From Acetobacteraceae bacterium (GTDB lineage: Bacteria; Pseudomonadota; Alphaproteobacteria; Acetobacterales; Acetobacteraceae): a DNA stretch of 38,281 nucleotides. The stretch covers positions 1-38,281 of the forward strand of contig JAYVCG010000169.1 in assembly GCA_043750075.1 (NCBI GenBank), in the 5' to 3' direction. Below the pieces are notes generated by a model. It saw only the letters and a list, made by a program, of their open reading frames with translations. It was not told where the DNA came from and did no database searches. Made by a program: the position numbers and the translations under genes. This document shows, in pieces, positions 10,721 to 28,281 of this stretch (position 1 is the first letter of the stretch; every line of letters begins with the position of its first letter).

Positions 10721-10797
10721 GGACCCGTAGCTCAGCTGGATAGAGCGTCGCCCTCCGAAGGCGAAGGTCGCACGTTCGAATCGTGTCGGGTCCGCCA
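10721..10797 (+). tRNA. tRNA-Arg(CCG)
   Basis: GGACCCG/CGGGTCC acceptor stem, TCGCC-CTCCGAA-GGCGA anticodon arm, TTCGAAT T-loop, CCA end. Confidence 0.97.
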
Positions 10798-10990
10798 ATC
10801 CTTTCAATGGCTTATTTGAATACAGCCATGATTGCGAAACCCTTTAGCCACCATATAGCTAGCAAAAGCTGGTGATATCCTTGCTTTCCGTTGTGGTCAT
10901 GGACGATCAGGGGACACGGATTATCTCTCACCAGCTTTAAAAGCATTGACGCGGTCGCACCCTCCTGGAACAGGTGATCGGATTGGAAGC

Positions 10991-12910
10991 GCTGGTTCCC
11001 TTGCATACGCGGGGAACACCATGCCGCTATCCTCACGGTCACGATTAGGTGCGGTTCATCCCCGCACACGCGGGGAACACTTTCTGCCGGGCCGGAGGGG
11101 AGCCGATTATTCCGGTTCATCCCCGCACACGCGGGGAACACGGATCGCGCGCCGCGGTTTCGCGGCCCGTGATCGGTTCATCCCCGCACACGCGGGGAAC
11201 ACGACCACCAACCATTCCCAATCGGCGGACGGCCCGGTTCATCCCCGCACACGCGGGGAACACGGTTTGACCCGGCGCCGGACCCGCGGCAGCGGCGGTT
11301 CATCCCCGCACACGCGGGGAACACGGCGTTCATCGCGTCTTGCCTGTGGTGAAACACGGTTCATCCCCGCACACGCGGGGAACACGCGGTCTATTGCGAG
11401 GATTGCGCCAGGGGGCTCGGTTCATCCCCGCACACGCGGGGAACACTTGGCGGGTTGGGCCGCGGGCGATTGGGTTTACGGTTCATCCCCGCACACGCGG
11501 GGAACACGAGGGAAAGTGGCGTTTGACCAAACAGCCCGACGGTTCATCCCCGCACACGCGGGGAACACCTCCAACCGCCCGTATCGTTTTCCAGGGCAGC
11601 CGGTTCATCCCCGCACACGCGGGGAACACTGCCCGGTCGCCGTTTCCGACAGGTTGCCCGGCGGTTCATCCCCGCACACGCGGGGAACACGTCTTCCAGG
11701 TCGCCTACGCCCCAGGGGAAACCGGTTCATCCCCGCACACGCGGGGAACACACGTTCCGCGGCGGAACGGGCGGCGCCCCCGACGGTTCATCCCCGCACA
11801 CGCGGGGAACACGATTGCAACAGCCAGTTCTCGGCGATCGCCGTCGGTTCATCCCCGCACACGCGGGGAACACGCCGGGAGGCAGGGGATCGAAACCCCG
11901 GCTGTCGGTTCATCCCCGCACACGCGGGGAACACTTCCAGGATTCCCATCTCCTGGAGCCGGTGCGCGGTTCATCCCCGCACACGCGGGGAACACGTTGG
12001 TCTCGTCAGGAAATACGAGCAAGGCGACGGTTCATCCCCGCACACGCGGGGAACACCGCGATCGTGCATTTCAGCGCCGGGACACTGACGGTTCATCCCC
12101 GCACACGCGGGGAACACCCTTTTCATGCTGCCGGGTCTGTTCCCGGCGGCGGTTCATCCCCGCACACGCGGGGAACACTGGTGTGGCTGAAAGAGGATCT
12201 GGACGCCTGGCGGTTCATCCCCGCACACGCGGGGAACACAGGTCGCCGCGTTCACAGAACTGGTGGACGGGCGGTTCATCCCCGCACACGCGGGGAACAC
12301 GCATCGCGCATGTCGAGGGCGCGGACACGCCACGGTTCATCCCCGCACACGCGGGGAACACGCGGCCTCGGCCCAAAGCTGATCCCGGTTGACCGGTTCA
12401 TCCCCGCACACGCGGGGAACACGGGGCGGGGGCGTCCTACGGCAAAAGGTGGGTCGGTTCATCCCCGCACACGCGGGGAACACATGAAACATCGATTTTC
12501 CTTTACGGTCGCAACCGGTTCATCCCCGCACACGCGGGGAACACGGCACCGATGCGGTATGCGTGGCGCTGGGCACCGGTTCATCCCCGCACACGCGGGG
12601 AACACGCGGGATCGATCCGGCCAAACGCCGCGGCGATCGGTTCATCCCCGCACACGCGGGGAACACGCCCGCCAGCCCAACTCAACATCAACAGGAGCCG
12701 GTTCATCCCCGCACACGCGGGGAACACACAGGAGCCTCCGCGATGTGGGAATACCGCGCCGGTTCATCCCCGCACACGCGGGGAACACCTGGCGGCAAGG
12801 ATTCGTCAGTCATGCTGCACCGGTTCATCCCCGCACACGCGGGGAACACCGCTGCCCGATGGCAGGGACGTGGGGGACATACGGTTCATCCCCGCACACG
12901 CGGGGAACAC
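10991..12910 (-). CRISPR. Type I-E CRISPR array: 31 repeats GTGTTCCCCGCGTGTGCGGGGATGAACCG plus one degenerate terminal repeat, 31 spacers of 32 bp
   Basis: 61-bp period from 11052 to 12882; degenerate repeat 10991..11019 at the leader-distal end; adjacent to cas2. Confidence 0.99.
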
Positions 12911-16848: not shown

Positions 16849-17369
16849 GGCGTGGTTTCCTCGGCATGCGGGGCGGCGGGCTGCCCGGCGTTCCAGTACT
16901 CGTAGACCCAGCGGGTCCGGCGTCCCTCGTCCCAGCGCGCCAGCGCGGCGGCGAGGTCGCGGACGTTCACCTTGTCCTTCGCCAGCGCGACCAGACGGCG
17001 GAAGGCGGTCAGCCGCTCGTCCGGCGTGGCGGCGTCGAGCAGGCGGCGGAAACGGAGAGGTTTCATCAGCGCCGTCTCGGGCGTGCCGGTGCCGTCCGGG
17101 CCGATGCGGCGGGCGACCGCCACGCCTGGATCGTCCTCCCGCACATGCGCCAGCACGGCGGCGGCGAGACCGGCGGCGGACAAATCATCCATGCCCTGTC
17201 CGCCGCCCAACCGGAACAACACGATCGCCGCTGGCTCCTGCATGGCCTCGGCGACCGTCGCGCAGCGGCGCAAACGCGCCAGCGCGGCGCGATCGCCTGG
17301 TTTTTTCTTGTCCGGATCGGGCTGGAGATCGCGCCACCACGCGACCATGCCCCCGCTGGCGAGGCTCAT
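16845..17369 (-). CDS. cse2: Cse2 (Cas11/CasB) small subunit
   Basis: DRAALARLRRC, LAHVRED, LRFRRLL, WVYEYW; lies between cas8e and cas7. Confidence 0.92.
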   Translation of the reverse strand: MSLASGGMVAWWRDLQPDPDKKKPGDRAALARLRRCATVAEAMQEPAAIVLFRLGGGQGMDDLSAAGLAAAVLAHVREDDPGVAVARRIGPDGTGTPETALMKPLRFRRLLDAATPDERLTAFRRLVALAKDKVNVRDLAAALARWDEGRRTRWVYEYWNAGQPAAPHAEETTP

Positions 17370-18982
17370 GTTCCCCTCCCTTTCGGTTTGACTTGTTTCG
17401 TTTCGGGGAGATTGAGATTGAGTTTCCCGAACAGATCGTTCCCCGCCTTCCCATATCCATGCAGCGCGAACCCCAGGAACTTCCGCGCCTGGGCGATGCG
17501 GGCGGCATTCTTCTGATCCGTGTCCGGGGCAAGCGGCGCCGCCTCATCGAACAAGGAAAACGCCAGGGGCCGCAGCATTTTCAGCCACTCCTCACGAGTC
17601 TTGCCCATGGTATCCGGTTGCCTCGCGACCTTTTCCAGGGCGGTGAAGAATGACGATTCCGTTTGTTCCCACAAACGTTCGCGCACGGTGTTGAACGGCA
17701 ATGCATCCGCCTTGACCGTCGCCCCTCGGTCGAACAGCGCGTCGCGGACGGCGTTGCGCGCCAGGCTGGCGACCTGATTGGCGGATTCGACAAGGGATTT
17801 GGCCAGATCATCCATGGCGTCCCTGGCCGCCTCCGTTGGCGCGGCGGGCAAGGGCAATTCGCTTTCGATGAAGGAACGCGCCTTCATGTTGTCCATGTCG
17901 AACCCGGCGGCCAGGATGCGGGCACGGGGATCACCGGCGTCACGGCCGCGAACATCGCGCCATTCGGGAACAACCGCCGCGGGGATGCGCGATCCATCCT
18001 CGCTTTTCAGCACCAGCCCGAGCCAGTCGCGATAGCCGATCCCCCCCGGCTGGGGATGCACCGGCAGCCATTCCTGGCTGTTCTTCGGCTGATAATGCGG
18101 CGTGAGCGGATGTATCCTGCCCCAGTCCGTGTAGTTCGCGCCATGCGGACGCTGCCGCCATGTCGCGACCTGAACGCTGTCCGGCTCCCCCGTCAGACCG
18201 CAGGCGCGCGGCGTTTCCAACGCCGTGAAATCCAGCCGGATGCGCCGCGGCATGCCCCACCAGCATTGCAGCCCGTGCGCGTTCTCCGGCGTCACCACAT
18301 GCCCGCTTTTGGAACCCGCGGCGGGCGCGAGCCAGGGGAACACGTGCGGGAAATCCCTGGATTTCAGGGCATTCTCCCGCGCCGGGACGTTGGCCCAGAG
18401 CAATTGCCACAGCGTCGGCGCGTCCCCCGGCACGATCAGGGTCACGAGTGGTCCGCCACCGCGCAACCCGGTGCGATTGCCCGCCCCCCCCGCCGGAGCC
18501 CAGGACTGGAAGGTGTACAGGACGATGGCGGCGGCGGGACGGCCAAGGGAGGCGACGCCATCGCGATGCACCAGCAGATCGGTGTTCTTGCTGATGGTGC
18601 TGCCGCCAGGCGCCTCGATCAACAGCCGCTCGACCGGTTCGGCGCCGGAGTCGAGGTCTTCCATGTCCTGCAAGAAACGAGGCCCGTTCCCATCGAGTTC
18701 GAACGCATGGGCGAAGGGCGCGAAAGCCTCGGTCAGTTGCTCGGGAGGGGGCGGGTCATGCCATTTCCTCAGCCACTCATCCCCATCCTCGGGTGGACAG
18801 AAAGTGGCGAGTGCGCCGGTCAGCAGTTCGAGCGTCGCGATCCGCAGATCAGGACGTGGCCAGTCGATGGCAATGATGGGGTTTTCGGCGTGATGTTCCG
18901 TGATCTGGGAAAGACGGATCGTATAGGGGCCGGAATCTCGGCGTAGGACGGGCAACCAGGAATCGGTCAGGAGATTGAGCAC
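17366..18982 (-). CDS. cas8e: Cas8e (Cse1/CasA); start likely GTG 18982
   Basis: AAGGAGGT RBS 5 nt before GTG; (V)LNLLTDSWLPV, PRFLQD, GNRTGLRGGGP, WGMPRRIRL, HPLTP. Confidence 0.93.
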   Translation of the reverse strand: MLNLLTDSWLPVLRRDSGPYTIRLSQITEHHAENPIIAIDWPRPDLRIATLELLTGALATFCPPEDGDEWLRKWHDPPPPEQLTEAFAPFAHAFELDGNGPRFLQDMEDLDSGAEPVERLLIEAPGGSTISKNTDLLVHRDGVASLGRPAAAIVLYTFQSWAPAGGAGNRTGLRGGGPLVTLIVPGDAPTLWQLLWANVPARENALKSRDFPHVFPWLAPAAGSKSGHVVTPENAHGLQCWWGMPRRIRLDFTALETPRACGLTGEPDSVQVATWRQRPHGANYTDWGRIHPLTPHYQPKNSQEWLPVHPQPGGIGYRDWLGLVLKSEDGSRIPAAVVPEWRDVRGRDAGDPRARILAAGFDMDNMKARSFIESELPLPAAPTEAARDAMDDLAKSLVESANQVASLARNAVRDALFDRGATVKADALPFNTVRERLWEQTESSFFTALEKVARQPDTMGKTREEWLKMLRPLAFSLFDEAAPLAPDTDQKNAARIAQARKFLGFALHGYGKAGNDLFGKLNLNLPETKQVKPKGRGT

Positions 18983-19079
18983 GAAATACCTCCTTTTTAA
19001 TCGAGAAATACGTTGAACAGGTAAGCCAAAGCATATAAGTTGCTTAAGGAAAATCTTCTGGTCAGAGATTGCTCCCCGA

Positions 19080-19109
19080 CTACGATAATCCACGGCATGT
19101 GTCCAACAT
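19080..19109 (-). other. Mini-ORF MLDTCRGLS with very strong RBS (candidate CreT-like toxin or leader ORF)
   Basis: AGAAAGGAGGT (19125-19115) lies 5 nt before ATG TTG GAC ACA TGC CGT GGA TTA TCG TAG. Confidence 0.45.
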
Positions 19110-19144
19110 GCTCAACCTCCTTTCTATCGTGATAGCGGGTTAAT

Positions 19145-19175
19145 GGAACCGGTGGGATCGCACCCCACCGGTTCC
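19145..19175. other. Perfect 12-bp stem-loop
   Basis: GGAACCGGTGGG-N7-CCCACCGGTTCC. Confidence 0.85.
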
Positions 19176-19234
19176 CAATAACTGACATGGCAAATGAGCA
19201 GGTGTCAATGATAAAAGAAGGGATGCAGAATTTT

Positions 19235-19268
19235 TCTCACCTATAAGAGTGACTAGACCACTTATAAA
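19235..19268 (-). promoter_or_regulatory. Target of the mini-array guide (AAG PAM 19263-19261) overlapping candidate promoter TTTATA-N17-TATAGG
   Basis: AAG|TGGTCTAGTCACTCTTATAGGTGAGA versus guide TGGTCGAGGCAATCTGACGGTGAAAA. Confidence 0.7.
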
Positions 19269-19317
19269 AAAAGTCATGCGAAGGAGGTAAGGGTTATCGA
19301 TAGGGTGGACAGACAAA

Positions 19318-19348
19318 GTGCTGCTTTCAGGATAACTGAAAACAGCAC
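19318..19348 (-). terminator. Probable intrinsic terminator after cas3 and the mini-array
   Basis: GTGCTG/CAGCAC plus TTTCAG/CTGAAA stem, followed by TTTGTCT on the minus strand. Confidence 0.55.
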
Positions 19349-19350
19349 CA

Positions 19351-19433
19351 ATCTTTATCCCCGCAAATGCGGGGAACACTTTTCACCGTCAGATTGCCTC
19401 GACCACGGTTCATCCCGCTGGCGCGGGTTCCTC
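19351..19433 (-). CRISPR. Degenerate single-spacer mini-array (CreR/CreA-like regulatory crRNA)
   Basis: GAGGAACCCGCGCCAGCGGGATGAACCG (19433-19406) + 26-nt spacer (19405-19380) + GTGTTCCCCGCATTTGCGGGGATAAAGAT (19379-19351). Confidence 0.85.
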
Positions 19434-22211
19434 TCCGATCCACGAAAGACCGGACCGCGCGTCATACCGGGCCACTCTCGCCGCCCCTGATTTCACGCGC
19501 GTCTCGAATCTATACCCTTCTCCATCGGGAACCAGCAAGGCCACCAGGATGGTGTCCAGCGCCTCCCGCTCCCATCGCCCCCAGTGTGCCCTGGCCGACA
19601 GCACGGCCGCCTCAAGCGCCGCCGGAGCCGGGCAGGCCGCGACCAGCCTCTGGGCCACCGAGACCTCGGACAAGGCCCAGGCGCGGCGCGGGTCCGGGTC
19701 GCGGGCATAGGGTACGACCCGCCCCTCCACCATCACCGCGAGGCGCAGCGTGACGTGCGGCTCATTCTCGATCCGGGTGGGGGTCTTCGTATCCGGGTTC
19801 CAGTCCCCGGTGTCCGTGGCATAGCCCTTGTCCAAATCCAGCAGGTTCTGTTTCGCCACGCATGTCAGGGACATCTCGCTGCCCTCGGCGGCGAGGGAGG
19901 ACCGCGCCAGGCCCGGCGGCACGGCACCCTCGGCTTCCCGGTCGAACGCTTCCTCGATCAGCGGCCGCATGTCGTCCGGGGTCACGATCGCGCCCCGCCG
20001 GAACACCGCGCGGGCGGAGCGCCACAGCAGCGCGTGATCGCGATACACCGCGCCCGTGCCGGGCAGGCTGGCCTTGATCCAGTCGCTGGCGGGATCGGCC
20101 ACGGGCTCCGGCGATACAACGAGCAGTTCGGGGCCTGACACCGGCCGGAGTCCGCGCGCATGCCGCCACAGCCGCCCGGCGCGCTGGATCAGCAGATCGG
20201 CGGGCGCCACATCCGTCACCATCAGGTCGAAATCGAGATCGAGGCTCTGCTCGACCACCTGGGTCGCGACCAGCACGCGGTTCCGCTCCGGTCTGGCTTC
20301 CCCACCCCTCCCGCTTCCGGCATCCCCATCCCTGGCCTCCCCGGCCCTGGGATCACCCGCGCGGGGAGGACCGAACACCCGCAGCACCTCGTCCTCGATC
20401 GCCAGCCGGTCCGCCATCGCGAAGCGCGCGTGGAACAACACCGCCTCGATCCCCTGGGCGCGCAGCATCCGGGCCGCGTCAATGGCATCGTTGACGGTGT
20501 TGCGTATCCAGACCACGGCGGCGCCCGCGGCATGGGCGGTGGCGATGCGCTCCACCGCCGCCGCGGCGTCCGCCAGCCGCGTCACCGTCACGCGCCGCGG
20601 CAATCCCTCCCGTGGAGCACAGTACGTTTCCTCCACACCGGCCGCGCCCGCGAGCGTGGCCAGCGGATACGCCCGCCGCTCCGGCCCCGGCGTCCACCCC
20701 GGCGCCCGGAGACCGCCGAGGAAGGCGTTCACCAATTTCTGGCGCGATTCAAACGGCAGTGTCGCCGACAGCAGGATCGCCGACCCGCCCAGGGCGGCGT
20801 GGAAGCGGAGGAGGGTGACGAGTTCCTCGCGCATGTAGGGGTCGAACGCATGCACCTCATCGACGATCAGCACCTTCCCCGTGAGACCGCGCAACCGCAG
20901 CGGCGCGTGCCGGACGGGAAGGACCGCCAGCAGCGCCTGATCCAGCGTCCCCACCCCCACTTGCGCCAGCAACGCGCGCCGCCGGTCGTGCGCCAGCCAC
21001 GCCGCGCAATGCGATTCGGCGGGTTCGTCCGCCGCGTCCACGGCGCCGCGCGGATCGGCCCCGCGTGGTCCAGCCTCACGCGGGCCAGCCTCACGCGGAT
21101 CGCCGTCGATCGCCGCCATGAAACGGGGGTTCAGCTCCGCGCGCCCGTGCGCCAGCGCCAGGGAGGGACGCGCCCCGGCGTCGAACAGCGCCTGATACGC
21201 CGTGGCGAGCCGCCTATGCATCGCGTTCGCCGTCGCCATGGTGGGCAGCGCCAGATACACGCCCTCGGCCCGGCCCGACGCCAGCAGGCGGTGGGCGAGC
21301 GTCACTGCCGCCTCGGTCTTGCCGCTACCGGTCAGATCCTCGATGACGGTGAGGCTCGGCCCCTCCGGCAACGGCACGGTTTCCGCCCATGCCTGGACCG
21401 GCGTGGGGAGCGTGATGCCGGGGAACAACCCGCGCAGCCCGGTGAACGGCGCCACGCGGGCATGCGCCAGCCCGGCCTCCGCCAGCGCCGCCGCCGCGCG
21501 CGGCAAGGCATGGCCCCAGAAATAAGCCCCCGGATCGGTGACGGCCACGGCGGACACATACGGAAACCATTGTTGGCGCGACCCGATCCAGTCCGCGAGC
21601 GTGGTCAGGCCCGCGAGCCGCCACGACAACAGCGGCACATCCTTTTCCCGCATGGGCCGGGGCCACGCCGGCGGACGGAACACCTCCCGCATCGCGTCCA
21701 GGAACTGGCCCGCCGCGTCGTGGCAGGCGGCACAGGCCACATCCGCGTCCAACCGCGCGGGGATCTCCGTCGGCCGTCCGTGATGTCCCGCGACGGCCCG
21801 CCAGAGCCTGTCACGGTCGCTTGGCTTCCAGACCGGCCCCGCCGCCGCGCGCTCCGGCAGCAGATCGGTCAGCCGCGGCGCGAGCGGCCTCGACAGGAAA
21901 TACGCCCCCACCGCGTCGTGGCGCGGCCAGGATCGTTTCTCCATCGGCCACGCCCCCAGCCACTCCACCGGCCAGTGCTCCCGCGCCTGGGCCTGGAACG
22001 CGCGCGAGAACTTGCCGATGTCATGCAGCGCGACGAGGAACCCGAGCATCCTGGGGTCCAGGCGCCCGCCCTCACGGCCCGCCAGCAGCACCGCCACCGC
22101 CGCGACATCGAGGCAATGCGCCACCAGCGGATGCGCCTCTTCCGTGGCTCCCTTCTCAGGCTGGGCCTTACCCCAGAATTGGGCCAGCACTGGCATGATG
22201 TGTTCCCCCAT
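19410..22211 (-). CDS. cas3: Cas3 HD nuclease-helicase
   Basis: FWGKA, HCLDVAA, HDIGK, GHHG, ADWIGS, TGSGKTE, DEVH, SAT, QRAGRLWRH. Confidence 0.98.
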   Translation of the reverse strand: MGEHIMPVLAQFWGKAQPEKGATEEAHPLVAHCLDVAAVAVLLAGREGGRLDPRMLGFLVALHDIGKFSRAFQAQAREHWPVEWLGAWPMEKRSWPRHDAVGAYFLSRPLAPRLTDLLPERAAAGPVWKPSDRDRLWRAVAGHHGRPTEIPARLDADVACAACHDAAGQFLDAMREVFRPPAWPRPMREKDVPLLSWRLAGLTTLADWIGSRQQWFPYVSAVAVTDPGAYFWGHALPRAAAALAEAGLAHARVAPFTGLRGLFPGITLPTPVQAWAETVPLPEGPSLTVIEDLTGSGKTEAAVTLAHRLLASGRAEGVYLALPTMATANAMHRRLATAYQALFDAGARPSLALAHGRAELNPRFMAAIDGDPREAGPREAGPRGADPRGAVDAADEPAESHCAAWLAHDRRRALLAQVGVGTLDQALLAVLPVRHAPLRLRGLTGKVLIVDEVHAFDPYMREELVTLLRFHAALGGSAILLSATLPFESRQKLVNAFLGGLRAPGWTPGPERRAYPLATLAGAAGVEETYCAPREGLPRRVTVTRLADAAAAVERIATAHAAGAAVVWIRNTVNDAIDAARMLRAQGIEAVLFHARFAMADRLAIEDEVLRVFGPPRAGDPRAGEARDGDAGSGRGGEARPERNRVLVATQVVEQSLDLDFDLMVTDVAPADLLIQRAGRLWRHARGLRPVSGPELLVVSPEPVADPASDWIKASLPGTGAVYRDHALLWRSARAVFRRGAIVTPDDMRPLIEEAFDREAEGAVPPGLARSSLAAEGSEMSLTCVAKQNLLDLDKGYATDTGDWNPDTKTPTRIENEPHVTLRLAVMVEGRVVPYARDPDPRRAWALSEVSVAQRLVAACPAPAALEAAVLSARAHWGRWEREALDTILVALLVPDGEGYRFETRVKSGAARVARYDARSGLSWIGEEPAPAG

Positions 22212-24101: not shown

Positions 24102-27100
24102 CTACCGGTTCCACAACCGCCGCCACCATCCTGGGCGGCGCCCGGCCTCCCCCGCCAGCATCCGCCGCGCGAAAGCGGGCGCGTCTTCCCAGGGCGGCGG
24201 GAACTGATCCCTCAGCAACACCCGCAGCGCGTCCCACAACGTCAAGGCGCGCGCGAAATCCGCCTTGTCCCCGCTCGCGATCCCCCGGTTCACATACGCC
24301 CGCGCGAGATCGTTGCGCCAGGGGATGGGCCAGTCCGCGCCCAGCGTGTCGCGCAACGCCTCCCTCAGCGCGATCGCGCGGTCGTAATCCCCGATCGCCG
24401 CCGCCGCGCCAAAACCAGGGGCGGACTGTTTGGCGTTGCCCCGGTTCATGAAGGCGTTCGCGAGATCGTTGCGCCAGGGGATGGGCCAGTCCGCGCCCAG
24501 CGAGTCGCGCAGTGTCTCCATCAGCGCGACCGCGCGGTCGTAGTCCGCGATCGCCGCCGCCGCGCCGAAACCAGGGGTGTCCTGTTTGGCGTTGCCCCGG
24601 TTCACGAAGGCGCCCGCCAGATCGTTGCGCCAGGGGATGGGCCAGTCCGCGCCCATCGTGTCGCGCAACGCCTCCCTCAGCGCGATCGCGCGGTCGTAAT
24701 CCGCGATCGCCGCGGCCGCGCCGAAACCAGGGGCGGACTGTTTGGCCACGCCCCGGTTCATGAAGGCGGAAGCGAGATCGTTGTCGCGCGTCGGCGCCCC
24801 ATCGGCTGGGCCGCCTCCGTGATGCAGACAGGCGATCAATGTGTTATACCAAGTGACCTGACGCGCGCTCGCGGCAATTTGAGTGCCATGCCGCGCCTCG
24901 ATCCATTGCGCGACATCACACAGCGGGACGGTCGCGTAGCGGTGCCGCTGTGGATCGGAGCCCGCCTGGTCAACCAGCGCGGGCAGCAGGGGGAAAACCT
25001 CCCGCAGCCTGTGCTCGGCGTCCGGTTCCGGGTTGGTTTCCGCCACCATGTCCGCGTGCAACGTCTCCACGGCGTCCAGGCCCAGGGACACCATGCGCGC
25101 GGTGGCGCGGGCGACGGCGGCGGAGGACGCGGCGTGCTCCGCCAGGGCGGGCGCGAACCCCTTCAGGCCGAGGCGGTAGCGTGCCACGCCGCTCCCGCCG
25201 CGCCAGATCCACAAGGCGCCTTGCAGCAGCAGCAGCGCCTCCATCAGCGCGACGCCATAGCGGCGGCCCGCCGCGTCGGCGGGTTCGTCCAGCAGCGCGG
25301 TCTCGGCCAGCAGGCCGATCGACACGCCGGGCCAGAGGACGGGCAGCACGTCCAGCGGCAGGCCCGTCGCCGCGTCCACCAGTGGCGCCCCCGTCATCGC
25401 GTCCCGTGGCGCGGTGTCCGGGTTGAACGTCCGGGCATGGGCGAGGTCCGCGGCCGCCAGCCCCGCCAGCACGCCCAGCAGATCGGCGGCCAGCTTGGCG
25501 CCGAAGCGCGTCTCCAGCCCGGCGATGAAACGGCTGTATATCTCGGTGCCCGAGCCCAGGGCGGCCACCTCGTCCGCCGTCAGGACACGGAGTTGCCCGA
25601 TCAGCAGGCTGAACAGCGAGAAGCGGGAATCGGCCTGCTCGATCAGCGCCGCCACGCGCGTCACCGCCGCCAGGGCGCCGAGATTGACGGTGGCGTATTC
25701 GCGCAGCAAGGCGAGATAGCCGGGATCGTCCAGCCGCCCCTCGTGGATGCCGGAGACGCCACCGGTCAGCGGACCGGCCAGCGCGGGGCCGAGCCAGGAC
25801 GGCGCCTGGTCGCTGGCCTGTTCCGCCACCACCGGGCGGGAGGTCAGCAGCACATACAGCCCCGGCGTCAGATCGGCGGCGCGCGGCAGCAACAGCAGAA
25901 TGCTGCCGTCCACGCGCGGCTCCCCGGCGGGATCGTCCTCCTCCGGACGCGGTTCCACGGCCTCGTCGAGACCATCCACGATCACCAGCAGCCGCGGATC
26001 GGGCCGTGGCGATAGCGCGCGCCACCGGTCCAGCCAGGCCACGAACGCGGCGGGACGGTCCTGGGCGTTCAGCACCTCGGCGGGCGTGGGCAGAAGCTGG
26101 TTGGCGCGTTCGGGAATGCCGAGGGCGGCGCGCAGATCGCCCGCCAGGCCTTGCAGGAAGGCGGCCTGATTCTCCCGGAACTCCTGCCTGCAGAAGAACG
26201 CCACCACGCCGACGCCGCCGCCCAGGGCGGTGTCCTCCGGCCCGCGCGGCGCCGCGATCGGCTCCTCCGGCAGCAGCCCCGCCAGTCCCTGGGCGAAGGT
26301 GGTCTTGCCGACATGCGCCGGGGCCTGGAGCCAGAACACGCCGCGATCGTGCCCCGCGATGAACGCCGCGAGCGGATCGCGCAGATGGCCCGGCGACTGA
26401 TACCGCTGGTCGATGCGCATCCGGTCCAGATGCAGCATCGCCGCGCCGCTGGTCAGCCGCTCCGCCGGGCTTTGTGGAGGAATGGCCTCGCCGATCGCCG
26501 CGAACTCGGCACGCAGTCCCGGATCGTCGGAGTCGTTGATGCGTCCGCGGTGCCCGTTGGCGTAATCGAGGAACCAGCTTCGCCAGTGCCGCCCGCGCTC
26601 GGCGCTGTCGTAGAAGAACACGTCGCGGCGGCCGCATTCCTGGCAGACGCGCGCCGCGACCATCGGCCCCAGATCCAGGACAAGCCCAGGGCCGGTGAGC
26701 CGCACCGGCAGGACGCGGCCGCCGTGGTCATGGTGGCGCGGATCGCCGCGCCAGGCGTCCAGCGCCGCCGCCCCGGTCAGGTCAATCACATCCTCCCCAT
26801 CCTGGGCTTGCAGGCGCAGGCCCTCCCAGGGGTTTTCGGCGCACGCCGCCGCCAGACCGTCGAGCAGGGGGACCGGCCTGTCCCGGACGCCCTGGGGTAG
26901 TGGATCGCCCGGTCCTCGCGCGGCGTACCAGGCGACGAGGGCGGCGGTCTCCGCCGGGTTCGCGCGCATCGCGCCATGGCCGAGATACTGGTTGCGCGCG
27001 GCGGCGAGGCTCTCCAGCGCGGCGCGGAAGCGGTGCCCGTTGCTGAACAGCCGCGCCAGTCCGGCGAGCGGGCCGTTGGGTTCGGTCTGGCTCAGCCGCT

Positions 27101-27749
27101 CCGCGGCGGTGCGCGCCAGATCGTTCCAGTTGCCGCCGCTGGCCTTGGCGACCATCACGCGCATCGTGTGCGCGTCCGGCCCGCCCAGGGTGATGAGGCG
27201 GCGGGCGAGGATGCTGGCGGGGAGCTTGAGCATCGCCTCGCCGGTGTCGCGCAACTGGAGCAACGCCCCCTCCGGCGAGGGCACGCCGCCGCGCCCGTGG
27301 CCGTCGAGCGTGTCCGCCAGGGCCCGGACCTCATGCGCGACGGGCGCTGGCCATTGAGTCAGCAGCGCGTCAAACCACGGCGCGGCGCGGAGGCGGGCGG
27401 CGGCGGCGTGGCAGAGACGCCGTGCCTCGGTCAGGTCGGCACTGGTGGTCAGGCGGACGGAGAGTCCGGCCTCGATGGTCTTGACGCGCGCGATCGCCTG
27501 TTCCTCGTCCTCCGCCGACAGGCGCGCGAGCTGGAGGACGAGGCCCGCCTGCCGCACGAACGCCTCCCTTCCGCCCGCCTCGGTGTCGCGGCGGGTCTGG
27601 TCGAGGGCGTCCAGGACGGTGGCGAGATCGGTCAGGCGCGTGGTCCGATGGTGCGGCGGTGATCGTATGTGGTCCGAAATGGGAGGGGAAGCGGTGGCGG
27701 GATGGCGGCGCCCTGACGGTGCCCCGCCAGGACGTGGAGCGGCGAGCAT
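24102..27749 (-). CDS. STAND/NACHT-like NTPase with N-terminal HEPN-like and CxxC region and C-terminal TPRs (start uncertain)
   Basis: RNQYLGH (26996-26976), CQEC, Walker A APAHVGKT (26324-26301), Walker B LLVIVDGLDE, LLTSRP, TPR-like NDLA.AF.NRG..K..AIADYDRAIAL repeats. Confidence 0.8.
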   Translation of the reverse strand: MLAAPRPGGAPSGRRHPATASPPISDHIRSPPHHRTTRLTDLATVLDALDQTRRDTEAGGREAFVRQAGLVLQLARLSAEDEEQAIARVKTIEAGLSVRLTTSADLTEARRLCHAAAARLRAAPWFDALLTQWPAPVAHEVRALADTLDGHGRGGVPSPEGALLQLRDTGEAMLKLPASILARRLITLGGPDAHTMRVMVAKASGGNWNDLARTAAERLSQTEPNGPLAGLARLFSNGHRFRAALESLAAARNQYLGHGAMRANPAETAALVAWYAARGPGDPLPQGVRDRPVPLLDGLAAACAENPWEGLRLQAQDGEDVIDLTGAAALDAWRGDPRHHDHGGRVLPVRLTGPGLVLDLGPMVAARVCQECGRRDVFFYDSAERGRHWRSWFLDYANGHRGRINDSDDPGLRAEFAAIGEAIPPQSPAERLTSGAAMLHLDRMRIDQRYQSPGHLRDPLAAFIAGHDRGVFWLQAPAHVGKTTFAQGLAGLLPEEPIAAPRGPEDTALGGGVGVVAFFCRQEFRENQAAFLQGLAGDLRAALGIPERANQLLPTPAEVLNAQDRPAAFVAWLDRWRALSPRPDPRLLVIVDGLDEAVEPRPEEDDPAGEPRVDGSILLLLPRAADLTPGLYVLLTSRPVVAEQASDQAPSWLGPALAGPLTGGVSGIHEGRLDDPGYLALLREYATVNLGALAAVTRVAALIEQADSRFSLFSLLIGQLRVLTADEVAALGSGTEIYSRFIAGLETRFGAKLAADLLGVLAGLAAADLAHARTFNPDTAPRDAMTGAPLVDAATGLPLDVLPVLWPGVSIGLLAETALLDEPADAAGRRYGVALMEALLLLQGALWIWRGGSGVARYRLGLKGFAPALAEHAASSAAVARATARMVSLGLDAVETLHADMVAETNPEPDAEHRLREVFPLLPALVDQAGSDPQRHRYATVPLCDVAQWIEARHGTQIAASARQVTWYNTLIACLHHGGGPADGAPTRDNDLASAFMNRGVAKQSAPGFGAAAAIADYDRAIALREALRDTMGADWPIPWRNDLAGAFVNRGNAKQDTPGFGAAAAIADYDRAVALMETLRDSLGADWPIPWRNDLANAFMNRGNAKQSAPGFGAAAAIGDYDRAIALREALRDTLGADWPIPWRNDLARAYVNRGIASGDKADFARALTLWDALRVLLRDQFPPPWEDAPAFARRMLAGEAGRRPGWWRRLWNR
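24290..24785 (-). repeat. Tandem 156-bp (52-aa) TPR-like repeats, three full units plus a partial fourth
   Basis: GATCGTTGCGCCAGGGGATGGGCCAGTCCGCGCCC recurs at about 24308, 24464 and 24620. Confidence 0.9.
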
Positions 27750-27949: not shown

Positions 27950-28002
27950 GCGTCGCCCTCCGAAGGCGAAGGTCGCACGTTCGAATCGTGTCGGGTCCGC
28001 CA
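27950..28002 (+). repeat. att-like duplicate of the tRNA-Arg 3' 53 bp
   Basis: GCGTCGCCCTCCGAAGGCGAAGGTCGCACGTTCGAATCGTGTCGGGTCCGCCA identical to 10745..10797; tRNA 5' part absent. Confidence 0.95.
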
Positions 28003-28281
28003 GTGATTTCAGCACACTCCCCATCACGCTGGCCGCGATGTGACTGGCTCCATGCTCCCCGTATGTGTCCAACGCGGACCCCGGCACCTCACCCGCGCGG
28101 GGTGTGGGCCACATGCCACTCACCAACGCGAATCCGATGCCTGCTTTCCCGCGGACAGGGAACCCCCGCCCCGCCCCATGCGCGTGGAAAGAGGCCGGTC
28201 CGCCCAAAGGGAACCCCGCATTCCGCCGACGCCCGTGGCGTGCCAGTCTGAGGGACGAACATCCTGAAAGGCCCCCTCACC

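Follow-up and report, generated by a model that had tools for sequence, protein, structure and literature searches.

What is the short, structured cassette that lies between cas3 and cas8e in a type I-E CRISPR-Cas locus of an Acetobacteraceae bacterium: an RNA toxin held down by the Cascade it would guard, a toxic peptide, or a leader of the cas operon? The window, a stretch of 38,281 nucleotides from contig JAYVCG010000169.1 (GenBank assembly GCA_043750075.1), belongs to a 4.26-Mb genome that is 76% complete and has 65% GC; judged by Cas8e, its nearest named relatives are Acetobacteraceae. On the minus strand it carries a complete type I-E system, with cas3 (19410..22211; TIGR01587, TIGR01596), a 427-nt gap and then cas8e-cse2-cas7-cas5-cas6-cas1-cas2 and an array. 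The gene that heads this run, cas8e (17366..18998, minus strand), has its own Shine-Dalgarno (SD) sequence at 18998-18988 and a GTG start at 18982. The CRISPR array (11052..12910, minus strand) contains 31 exact repeats, and its spacers are 32 nt long in 30/30 cases. A 62-nt direct repeat (10745-10806 and 27950-28011), which matches the 3' end of tRNA-Arg(CCG) (10721-10797), flanks the entire CRISPR-cas locus together with a 1215-aa protein (24102-27749) that has a weak NACHT match. The locus and this protein are likely an island integrated at tRNA-Arg(CCG). Rfam gave no match across 18900-19500, and blastn of the cas3-cas8e gap against plasmids and phages gave none either. In viral contigs, neither a relative of Cas8e nor a mimic of the guide seed was found.

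The cas3-proximal part of the gap encodes a guide. Degenerate repeat 1 (19406..19430, minus strand), within which the cas3 stop codon lies, retains the 8-nt 5' handle of the array repeat, and degenerate repeat 2 (19352..19379, minus strand) has an intact 7-bp stem. Between them sits a predicted CreA/CreR guide spacer of 26 nt (19380..19405, minus strand), six nucleotides shorter than the 32-nt array spacers. The whole repeat-spacer-repeat unit (19430-19352) overlaps the cas3 stop, and the terminator-like hairpin beyond it (19317..19349, minus strand; z -6.59) likely ends the cas3/guide transcript. An AAG PAM (19263-19261) and a guide target running from 19260 follow (together 19235..19263, minus strand); the guide matches this target at 7/7 seed and 13/15 scored positions, with mismatches at positions 6, 12 and 18 and also at 9, 16 and beyond. 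Among 20000 shuffled spacers, none matched the gap equally well (0/20000). The AAG-flanked target is 52 nt upstream of a TTGACA hexamer and begins 151 nt before the mini-ORF described below, within a family range of 109-167. A second genomic site (G000:C665:2557-2574) equals the local target in guide score and also has an AAG PAM. A degenerate repeat-spacer-repeat in a cas intergenic region, with its 5' handle and 3' stem kept, and a partial PAM-proximal match to a local site beside a canonical PAM are both present, and by sequence the mini-array guide belongs to the CreA/CreR class. Spacer lengths across the guides of 37 loci cluster near 21-22, 26-27 and 32-33 nt, in steps of roughly one Cas7 subunit.

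Downstream of the target, the same strand carries a compact series of expression signals. The candidate promoter (19179..19208, minus strand) combines TTGACA (19208-19203) with a weak -10 candidate, CAGTTA (19184-19179), across an 18-nt spacer; a sigma-70 consensus scan found no promoter at the cassette above threshold, and the -10 stays a candidate. The 5' hairpin (19145..19175, minus strand), a predicted transcript stabiliser, has arms at 19175-19164 and 19156-19145 and a folding energy of -27.1 kcal/mol. The SD sequence AGAAAGGAGGT (19115..19125, minus strand; -12.6 kcal/mol) is among the strongest of the family and stands 5 nt before the ATG of a nine-codon mini-ORF, MLDTCRGLS and stop (19080..19109, minus strand), in which codons 7-8 are GGA TTA (19091-19086). 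[quoted passage not shown] Codons 7-9 are identical in a contig from a separate study (run X6, 18947-19097, 0 differences).

The first-pass annotation had placed TTGACA, the hairpin, the SD, the ATG, the ORF and the cas8e SD on the minus strand, all at the correct positions. The perfect 12-bp hairpin it described is far beyond chance (z -5.58, 0/200 shuffles), and its very strong ribosome-binding site followed by a nine-codon ORF is there. Its expectation that TTA, ACA and GGA would all be rare codons was borne out in part. By codon usage from 2183 heuristically called ORFs, TTA is rare (1.36 per 1000, rank 2 of 61), ACA is moderately rare (3.81 per 1000, rank 13) and GGA is not rare (9.35 per 1000, rank 26 of 61). 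The 11-mer SD occurs three times in the 4.26-Mb genome, and 20/107 AAGGAGG-plus-start sites in it give ORFs of <=15 codons. Since a strong SD ahead of a short ORF is by itself nothing unusual, the case rests on context and conservation.

Conservation was assessed among Cas8e relatives collected both from contigs of genomes and metagenomes and by searches at genus, family and order level. Near-duplicate loci, locus L142, relatives with Cas8e identity under 40% and those with no cas8e start were left out before counting, which gave 90 distinct loci (Cas8e identity >=40%, near-duplicates removed). The ribosome-binding site and mini-ORF are conserved among them, as the first-pass annotation had proposed to check: the layout of guide, target, promoter, 5' hairpin, SD, mini-ORF and 3' hairpin recurs in 28/90 loci, mostly Acetobacteraceae, although these modules were curated by eye, anchored on SD and start, and related loci are not independent. 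Twenty-two modules align with almost no gaps. A hairpin precedes the SD in 25/25 modules, at -11 to -33 kcal/mol (without shuffle control), and TTGAC-like hexamers sit before it in most relatives.

The guide rule is passed by 25/28 modules, a count that includes L018, whose guide target is on the other strand, and L218, whose repeat is further upstream. L225 falls just below the rule (seed 7/7, 11/15), L138 is cut by the end of its contig, and L004 is a module remnant with no guide and no evident promoter. A shuffle control of the rule (160/560 pass) was set aside because targets near the array had been left unshuffled. In L004 an apparent pair of AbrB-like antitoxin and Doc-like toxin (by eye) replaces the mini-array after cas3. 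Spacers and targets vary between loci yet still match, which argues that repression is under selection. A guide without a module occurs in 12/90 loci and neither element in 50/90. This asymmetry fits the prediction for an addictive toxin, and joint inheritance could give the same pattern. Broken cas8e genes (1/28 module loci versus 2/55) are too rare for a test of addiction.

Three loci appear to be natural knock-outs of the mini-ORF. L009 has lost the SD and start, L219 has a stop at codon 2 and L138 a stop at codon 6, both before the rare pair, and all three keep guide or cas genes. L138 is also the sole module locus with a frameshifted cas8e, a single case that may be an assembly error. An RNA model had no match in the 62 module-less loci, although it missed 4/6 curated members outside its training set. 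In 151 class and 151 family genomes (31 candidates scored each), model R1 found no copies outside cas loci, and the family draw returned training members and one chance-like match only. Weak R1 matches in L259-L261 were rejected on inspection, being the start of a long gene or having no start codon.

Other gaps in the survey hold other small genes. Seven more distant I-E gaps (L027, L053, L060, L070, L074, L179 and L079) combine a mini-array with an ORF of ~30-50 codons (by eye); these ORFs have a hydrophobic C-terminal stretch, several look homologous, and they are candidates for CRISPR-repressed membrane-peptide toxins. The gaps of L048, L078, L069 and L192 contain two further ORF types (by eye), one basic and of ~40-50 residues, the other Cys-containing and of ~52 residues. 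In L120 and L226 a guide and 5' hairpin are followed by a longer ORF (~80 codons in L226) that replaces the mini-ORF.

Within the 28 modules, what is kept at the mini-ORF is a position rather than a product. Neither its peptide nor its length (5-53 codons) nor the place of its stop is conserved, yet an A stands at +21 in 23/28 modules and at +24 in 22/28, the remaining codon positions being variable. Codons 7 and 8 are both rare in 16/28 modules in frame versus 0/28 in each of four shifted frames, against a background of 18%. Identical pairs fill the two positions in 8/28 modules: AGA-AGA (5), ATA-ATA, TTA-TTA and ACA-ACA. A held-out set of nine loci, fetched later, contributed three more modules, 3/3 with a rare-codon pair. 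Automatic picks (19 loci with a guide and an SD <= -8, counted without the duplicate L142) included 17 ORFs of >=8 codons, with a rare codon at 7 or 8 in 15/17 and at both in 10/17. Codon usage in 15 sampled hosts (15-20 kb of each) placed one or both slot codons among the nine rarest in every case. Over these modules, the comparison shows A-ending rare codons conserved in frame at codons 7-8 without conservation of the amino acid.

The 56 slots at codons 7-8 are dominated by AGA (18), TTA (10) and ATA (5), and the equally rare TCT, ACT, TGT and AGT appear in none of them across the 28 modules. By general decoding rules the latter four share abundant tRNAs, and the slot would pick codons that have a dedicated minor tRNA. 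Sister loci on a quick tree, which left out six loci with short or broken frames, differ in codon pair (L007/L010, L005/L140 and L001/this locus).

The present copy, GGA-TTA beside the AGA-AGA of its sister L001, may be weakened relative to the family, because its codon 7 is GGA where the family prefers AGA. An extension of this idea holds that the family is CreT-like, that this copy is weakened or dead and that the main role left to its guide is that of a CreR autorepressor for the cascade operon. In this genome GGA is not a rare codon, and it lies one base from AGA, the commonest slot codon; AGA-TTA is the pair in L118 and L225; decayed relatives exist (L009, L138, L219, L004); and guide-only loci are common (12/90). 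Yet the copy retains its SD (-12.6), its perfect 5' hairpin, its 6-bp start stem and its 3' hairpin at +30. L092, L101 and L143 likewise have TTA with no second rare slot codon, and L150 has GGA before AGA. In congeners, moreover, the tRNA for GGA was detected only once in each genome: tRNA-Leu(UAA) and tRNA-Gly(UCC) each gave a single pattern match in 4/4 near-complete congeners. On this balance, a lapse of this copy into simple autorepression seems doubtful.

The lack of a conserved peptide bears on a second explanation, in which the toxin is a peptide, either MLDTCRGLS or the overlapping 33-residue ORF (19098-18997). A translated 96-bp I-E CreT does occupy the same gap in Citrobacter rodentium (PMC12055562). 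The 33-codon frame was also singled out in the first-pass annotation; it is present, but as a product it fared poorly. It has no SD (-2.4 versus -12.6 kcal/mol for the mini-ORF) and no membrane helix (best 19-residue Kyte-Doolittle mean 0.84), and by eye its counterparts are absent from the 27 other modules, so that the locus offers no conserved equivalent of the C. rodentium type of translated ~31-codon ORF with its own ribosome-binding site. With sequence and length of the mini-ORF unconserved as well, a peptide toxin is highly improbable.

The opposite strand offers a rival RNA. A leaderless mini-ORF, ATG CGA AGG AGG TAA (19276-19290, plus strand), has three rare Arg codons in a pattern found three times in the genome, with a hairpin downstream and TATAAA 7 nt upstream, beside the PAM, and the guide target overlaps the place expected for its -35. 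Precedents exist in the leaderless CreT of H. hubeiense (PMC8501985) and in the Acinetobacter creT that diverges from creA (PMC10097628). Against it, the antisense frame occurs in 1/28 modules and has no recognisable -35, and the hairpin is accounted for by the opposite-strand guide terminator; that this frame is the toxin is a very long shot. Read another way, 19276-19290 (plus strand) is a strong SD with no start after it. The idea that read-through RNA masks the toxin SD was considered and rejected: in its best fold the upstream anti-SD-like stretch (19290-19281) and the SD do not pair with each other, and only 2/28 modules have a comparable motif.

Two structural traits, which the first-pass annotation did not contain, frame the codon slot: a start-codon stem with covariation, and a 3' hairpin usually 11-14 nt after codon 7. 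In the 22 aligned modules, 74% of cells in the start-codon stem are paired, with 23 double-sided changes, a result matched by 0/500 shuffles; the alignment shows that the stem covaries across the family. A start stem of >=5 bp is present in 15/28 modules versus 24-28% in three controls, about a twofold enrichment. The 6-bp stem of this copy is shifted in register by two, and loop bases vary among members. The 3' hairpin begins at +28..+35 in 18/25 modules versus 24/150 shuffles, with a peak at +31..+33; this spacing is not strict, being 3-10 nt in 13/23 by automatic pick. Hairpins 11-12 nt from the P-site codon are reported to hinder A-site tRNA binding (PMC7282821), and the 3' hairpin of this copy, 11 nt from codon 7, matches that spacing. 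In E. coli extracts, codons 7-8 are described as the weakest position at which AGAAGA causes minigene-type tRNA sequestration (PMC2490762). Plain peptidyl-tRNA drop-off therefore leaves the fixed position unexplained, and a hairpin-assisted stall is invoked because drop-off fits poorly.

Together these features point, at about an even chance, to a Cascade-repressed CreT-like RNA toxin that belongs to a conserved alphaproteobacterial I-E family and does not act as a peptide. The CreT-like reading first drawn from this copy now has strong comparative support, apart from the supposed rarity of GGA and the 33-codon ORF, which are not supported. In the proposed mechanism, Cas6 would mature the guide, and a shortened Cascade would bind without cutting at the AAG-flanked site upstream of TTGACA, to which the mini-CRISPR spacer directs it, holding transcription down. 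Loss of Cascade or attack by an anti-CRISPR would let the promoter fire and yield a hairpin-capped RNA, which, as no terminator was recognised, probably also continues into cas8e and serves as leader for the cascade mRNA. The strong SD would load ribosomes and the start-codon stem would shape initiation. Once codon 7 occupied the P site and TTA the A site, the 3' hairpin would meet the mRNA entry channel and prolong the stall; tRNA-Leu(UAA), tRNA-Gly(UCC) and ribosomes would be tied up, and growth would stop. A more specific and more tentative proposal is a programmable ribosome trap, in which the start stem and the entry-channel hairpin hold the ribosome at codons 7-8 while the tRNA (Arg, Ile, Leu, Thr or Gly) is swapped freely. 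If true, a single RNA transcribed together with the cascade operon would combine the rare-tRNA mechanism of archaea with the start-stem mechanism of Acinetobacter.

The probable read-through also suits a non-toxic translated leader, whose rare-codon pausing would stabilise mRNA or block Rho and couple cas expression to tRNA supply. The mini-ORF is on the same strand as cas8e and 97 nt upstream of it, with no terminator-like element between (none in 25/28 modules), and codons 7-8 suit minigene toxicity poorly. Attenuator leaders carry regulatory codons at a fixed position next to a hairpin, which the fixed codons here resemble. However, the folds expected with a stalled and with a passed ribosome shift the accessibility of the cas8e start by >0.1 in only 5/28 modules (mean change -0.011; 0.01 in this copy), and folding gives an attenuator switch no support. 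The operon also runs without the module in 62/90 loci, and the amino-acid identity of the slot switches freely. A purely regulatory leader is on these grounds rather unlikely. In L001, L088, L092, L139 and L138, a small hairpin and a TCGA-like motif lie 20-30 nt before the cas8e start (by eye), possibly a processing site that parts leader from cas mRNA.

How does the family of Cascade-repressed modules relate to known systems? The comparisons made here extend as far as the accessible text of each cited report. Haloarchaeal type I-B CreTs carry AGA-AGA in Haloarcula hispanica and AUA-AUA in Halobacterium hubeiense, and haloarchaeal CreTA resembles the present modules, by description, in its two-repeat degenerate guide in a cas gap, its strong SD and its downstream stem-loop (PMC8501985). 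Among haloarchaeal CreT homologues the rare-codon pair switches from Arg to Ile, as it does among the modules here, and the stop codon is not essential (PMC8501985). Unlike that I-B system, the modules are bacterial and I-E, place the pair at codons 7-8, also use Leu (TTA), Thr (ACA) and mixed pairs, and add a 5' hairpin and a start-codon stem. Of the features of a tRNA-sequestering CreT, the present copy shows the strong SD (-12.6 kcal/mol) with ATG and the stem-loop 3' of the mini-ORF (19080-19061); it has one clearly rare codon and, with GGA-TTA, lacks two consecutive rare codons for one minor tRNA. By sequence it lies strictly outside the tandem-rare-codon class of CreT, while more than half of the family shows the rare pair.

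Type I-F systems provide two further parallels. CreTA of Acinetobacter sp. WCHA45 has an SD and a ~10-codon ORF in the cas3-effector gap with its start codon in a short stem (PMC10097628), comparable to the predicted 6-bp stem of this copy. Acinetobacter CreT needs this stem and can dispense with its stop codon (PMC10097628). It differs from the modules here in being divergent from creA and in needing specific loop bases, and rare codons are not reported in the accessible text (PMC10097628); the modules have a variable loop, a conserved rare-codon slot and a 3' hairpin. A loop complementary to 23S rRNA is a further mark of the Acinetobacter type. The proline-codon CreT of Pseudomonas aeruginosa shares an SD, a mini-ORF and a GC hairpin downstream of the guide target, and further likenesses are slow codons before the stop, the 26-nt spacer of CreA2 and a CreTA1 promoter common to the cas genes (bioRxiv 10.64898/2026.06.02.729485). 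Two Pro codons before the stop are lacking in this copy; Pro-Pro is found only in L004 among the modules, and the ORF is longer here. In P. aeruginosa CreT, the hairpin could be moved 15 nt away without effect (bioRxiv 10.64898/2026.06.02.729485).

Among I-E systems, C. rodentium CreT is likewise Cascade-repressed in the cas3-cas8e gap, with its target upstream of the promoter core; as described, it is unlike the present modules in having a 96-bp ORF translated in frame, no rare codons and a guide on the opposite strand (PMC12055562). Salmonella enterica I-E CreR shares the mini-array between cas3 and cas8e, the AAG PAM and a partial match upstream of the cascade operon (bioRxiv 10.1101/2023.03.10.532045). 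Salmonella CreR is described without a toxin, whereas the present loci have a conserved SD-mini-ORF cassette between the target and cas8e. The CreA/CreR mini-array pattern also appears in a mini-array survey (bioRxiv 10.1101/2023.03.03.530964). A description of the present family was not found in the open literature, although supplements and subscription papers may list guides, and the accessible text of five further reports does not describe it (bioRxiv 2024.10.29.618823; bioRxiv 2024.01.05.574328; PMC12737573; PMC12362730; PMC9379143). Sequence comparison makes it likely that the modules represent, within the known kind of RNA toxin that guards CRISPR, a new family in bacteria.

In the accessible text of the literature surveyed, a natural rare-tRNA CreT has been shown only in haloarchaeal I-B systems, and the sole I-E example, a translated ORF, has no rare codons. 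The 28 natural variants, the codon-swapped sister loci and the natural knock-outs amount to a ready-made mutational series with which ribosome stalling becomes testable. Cultured strains carry the module in Acetobacter farinalis (L010, AGA-AGA), Komagataeibacter melomenusus (L007, ATA-ATA) and Rhodopseudomonas faecalis (L020, TTA-TTA). If the toxin reading holds, it predicts that single deletion of cascade genes would be impossible in these acetic acid bacteria.
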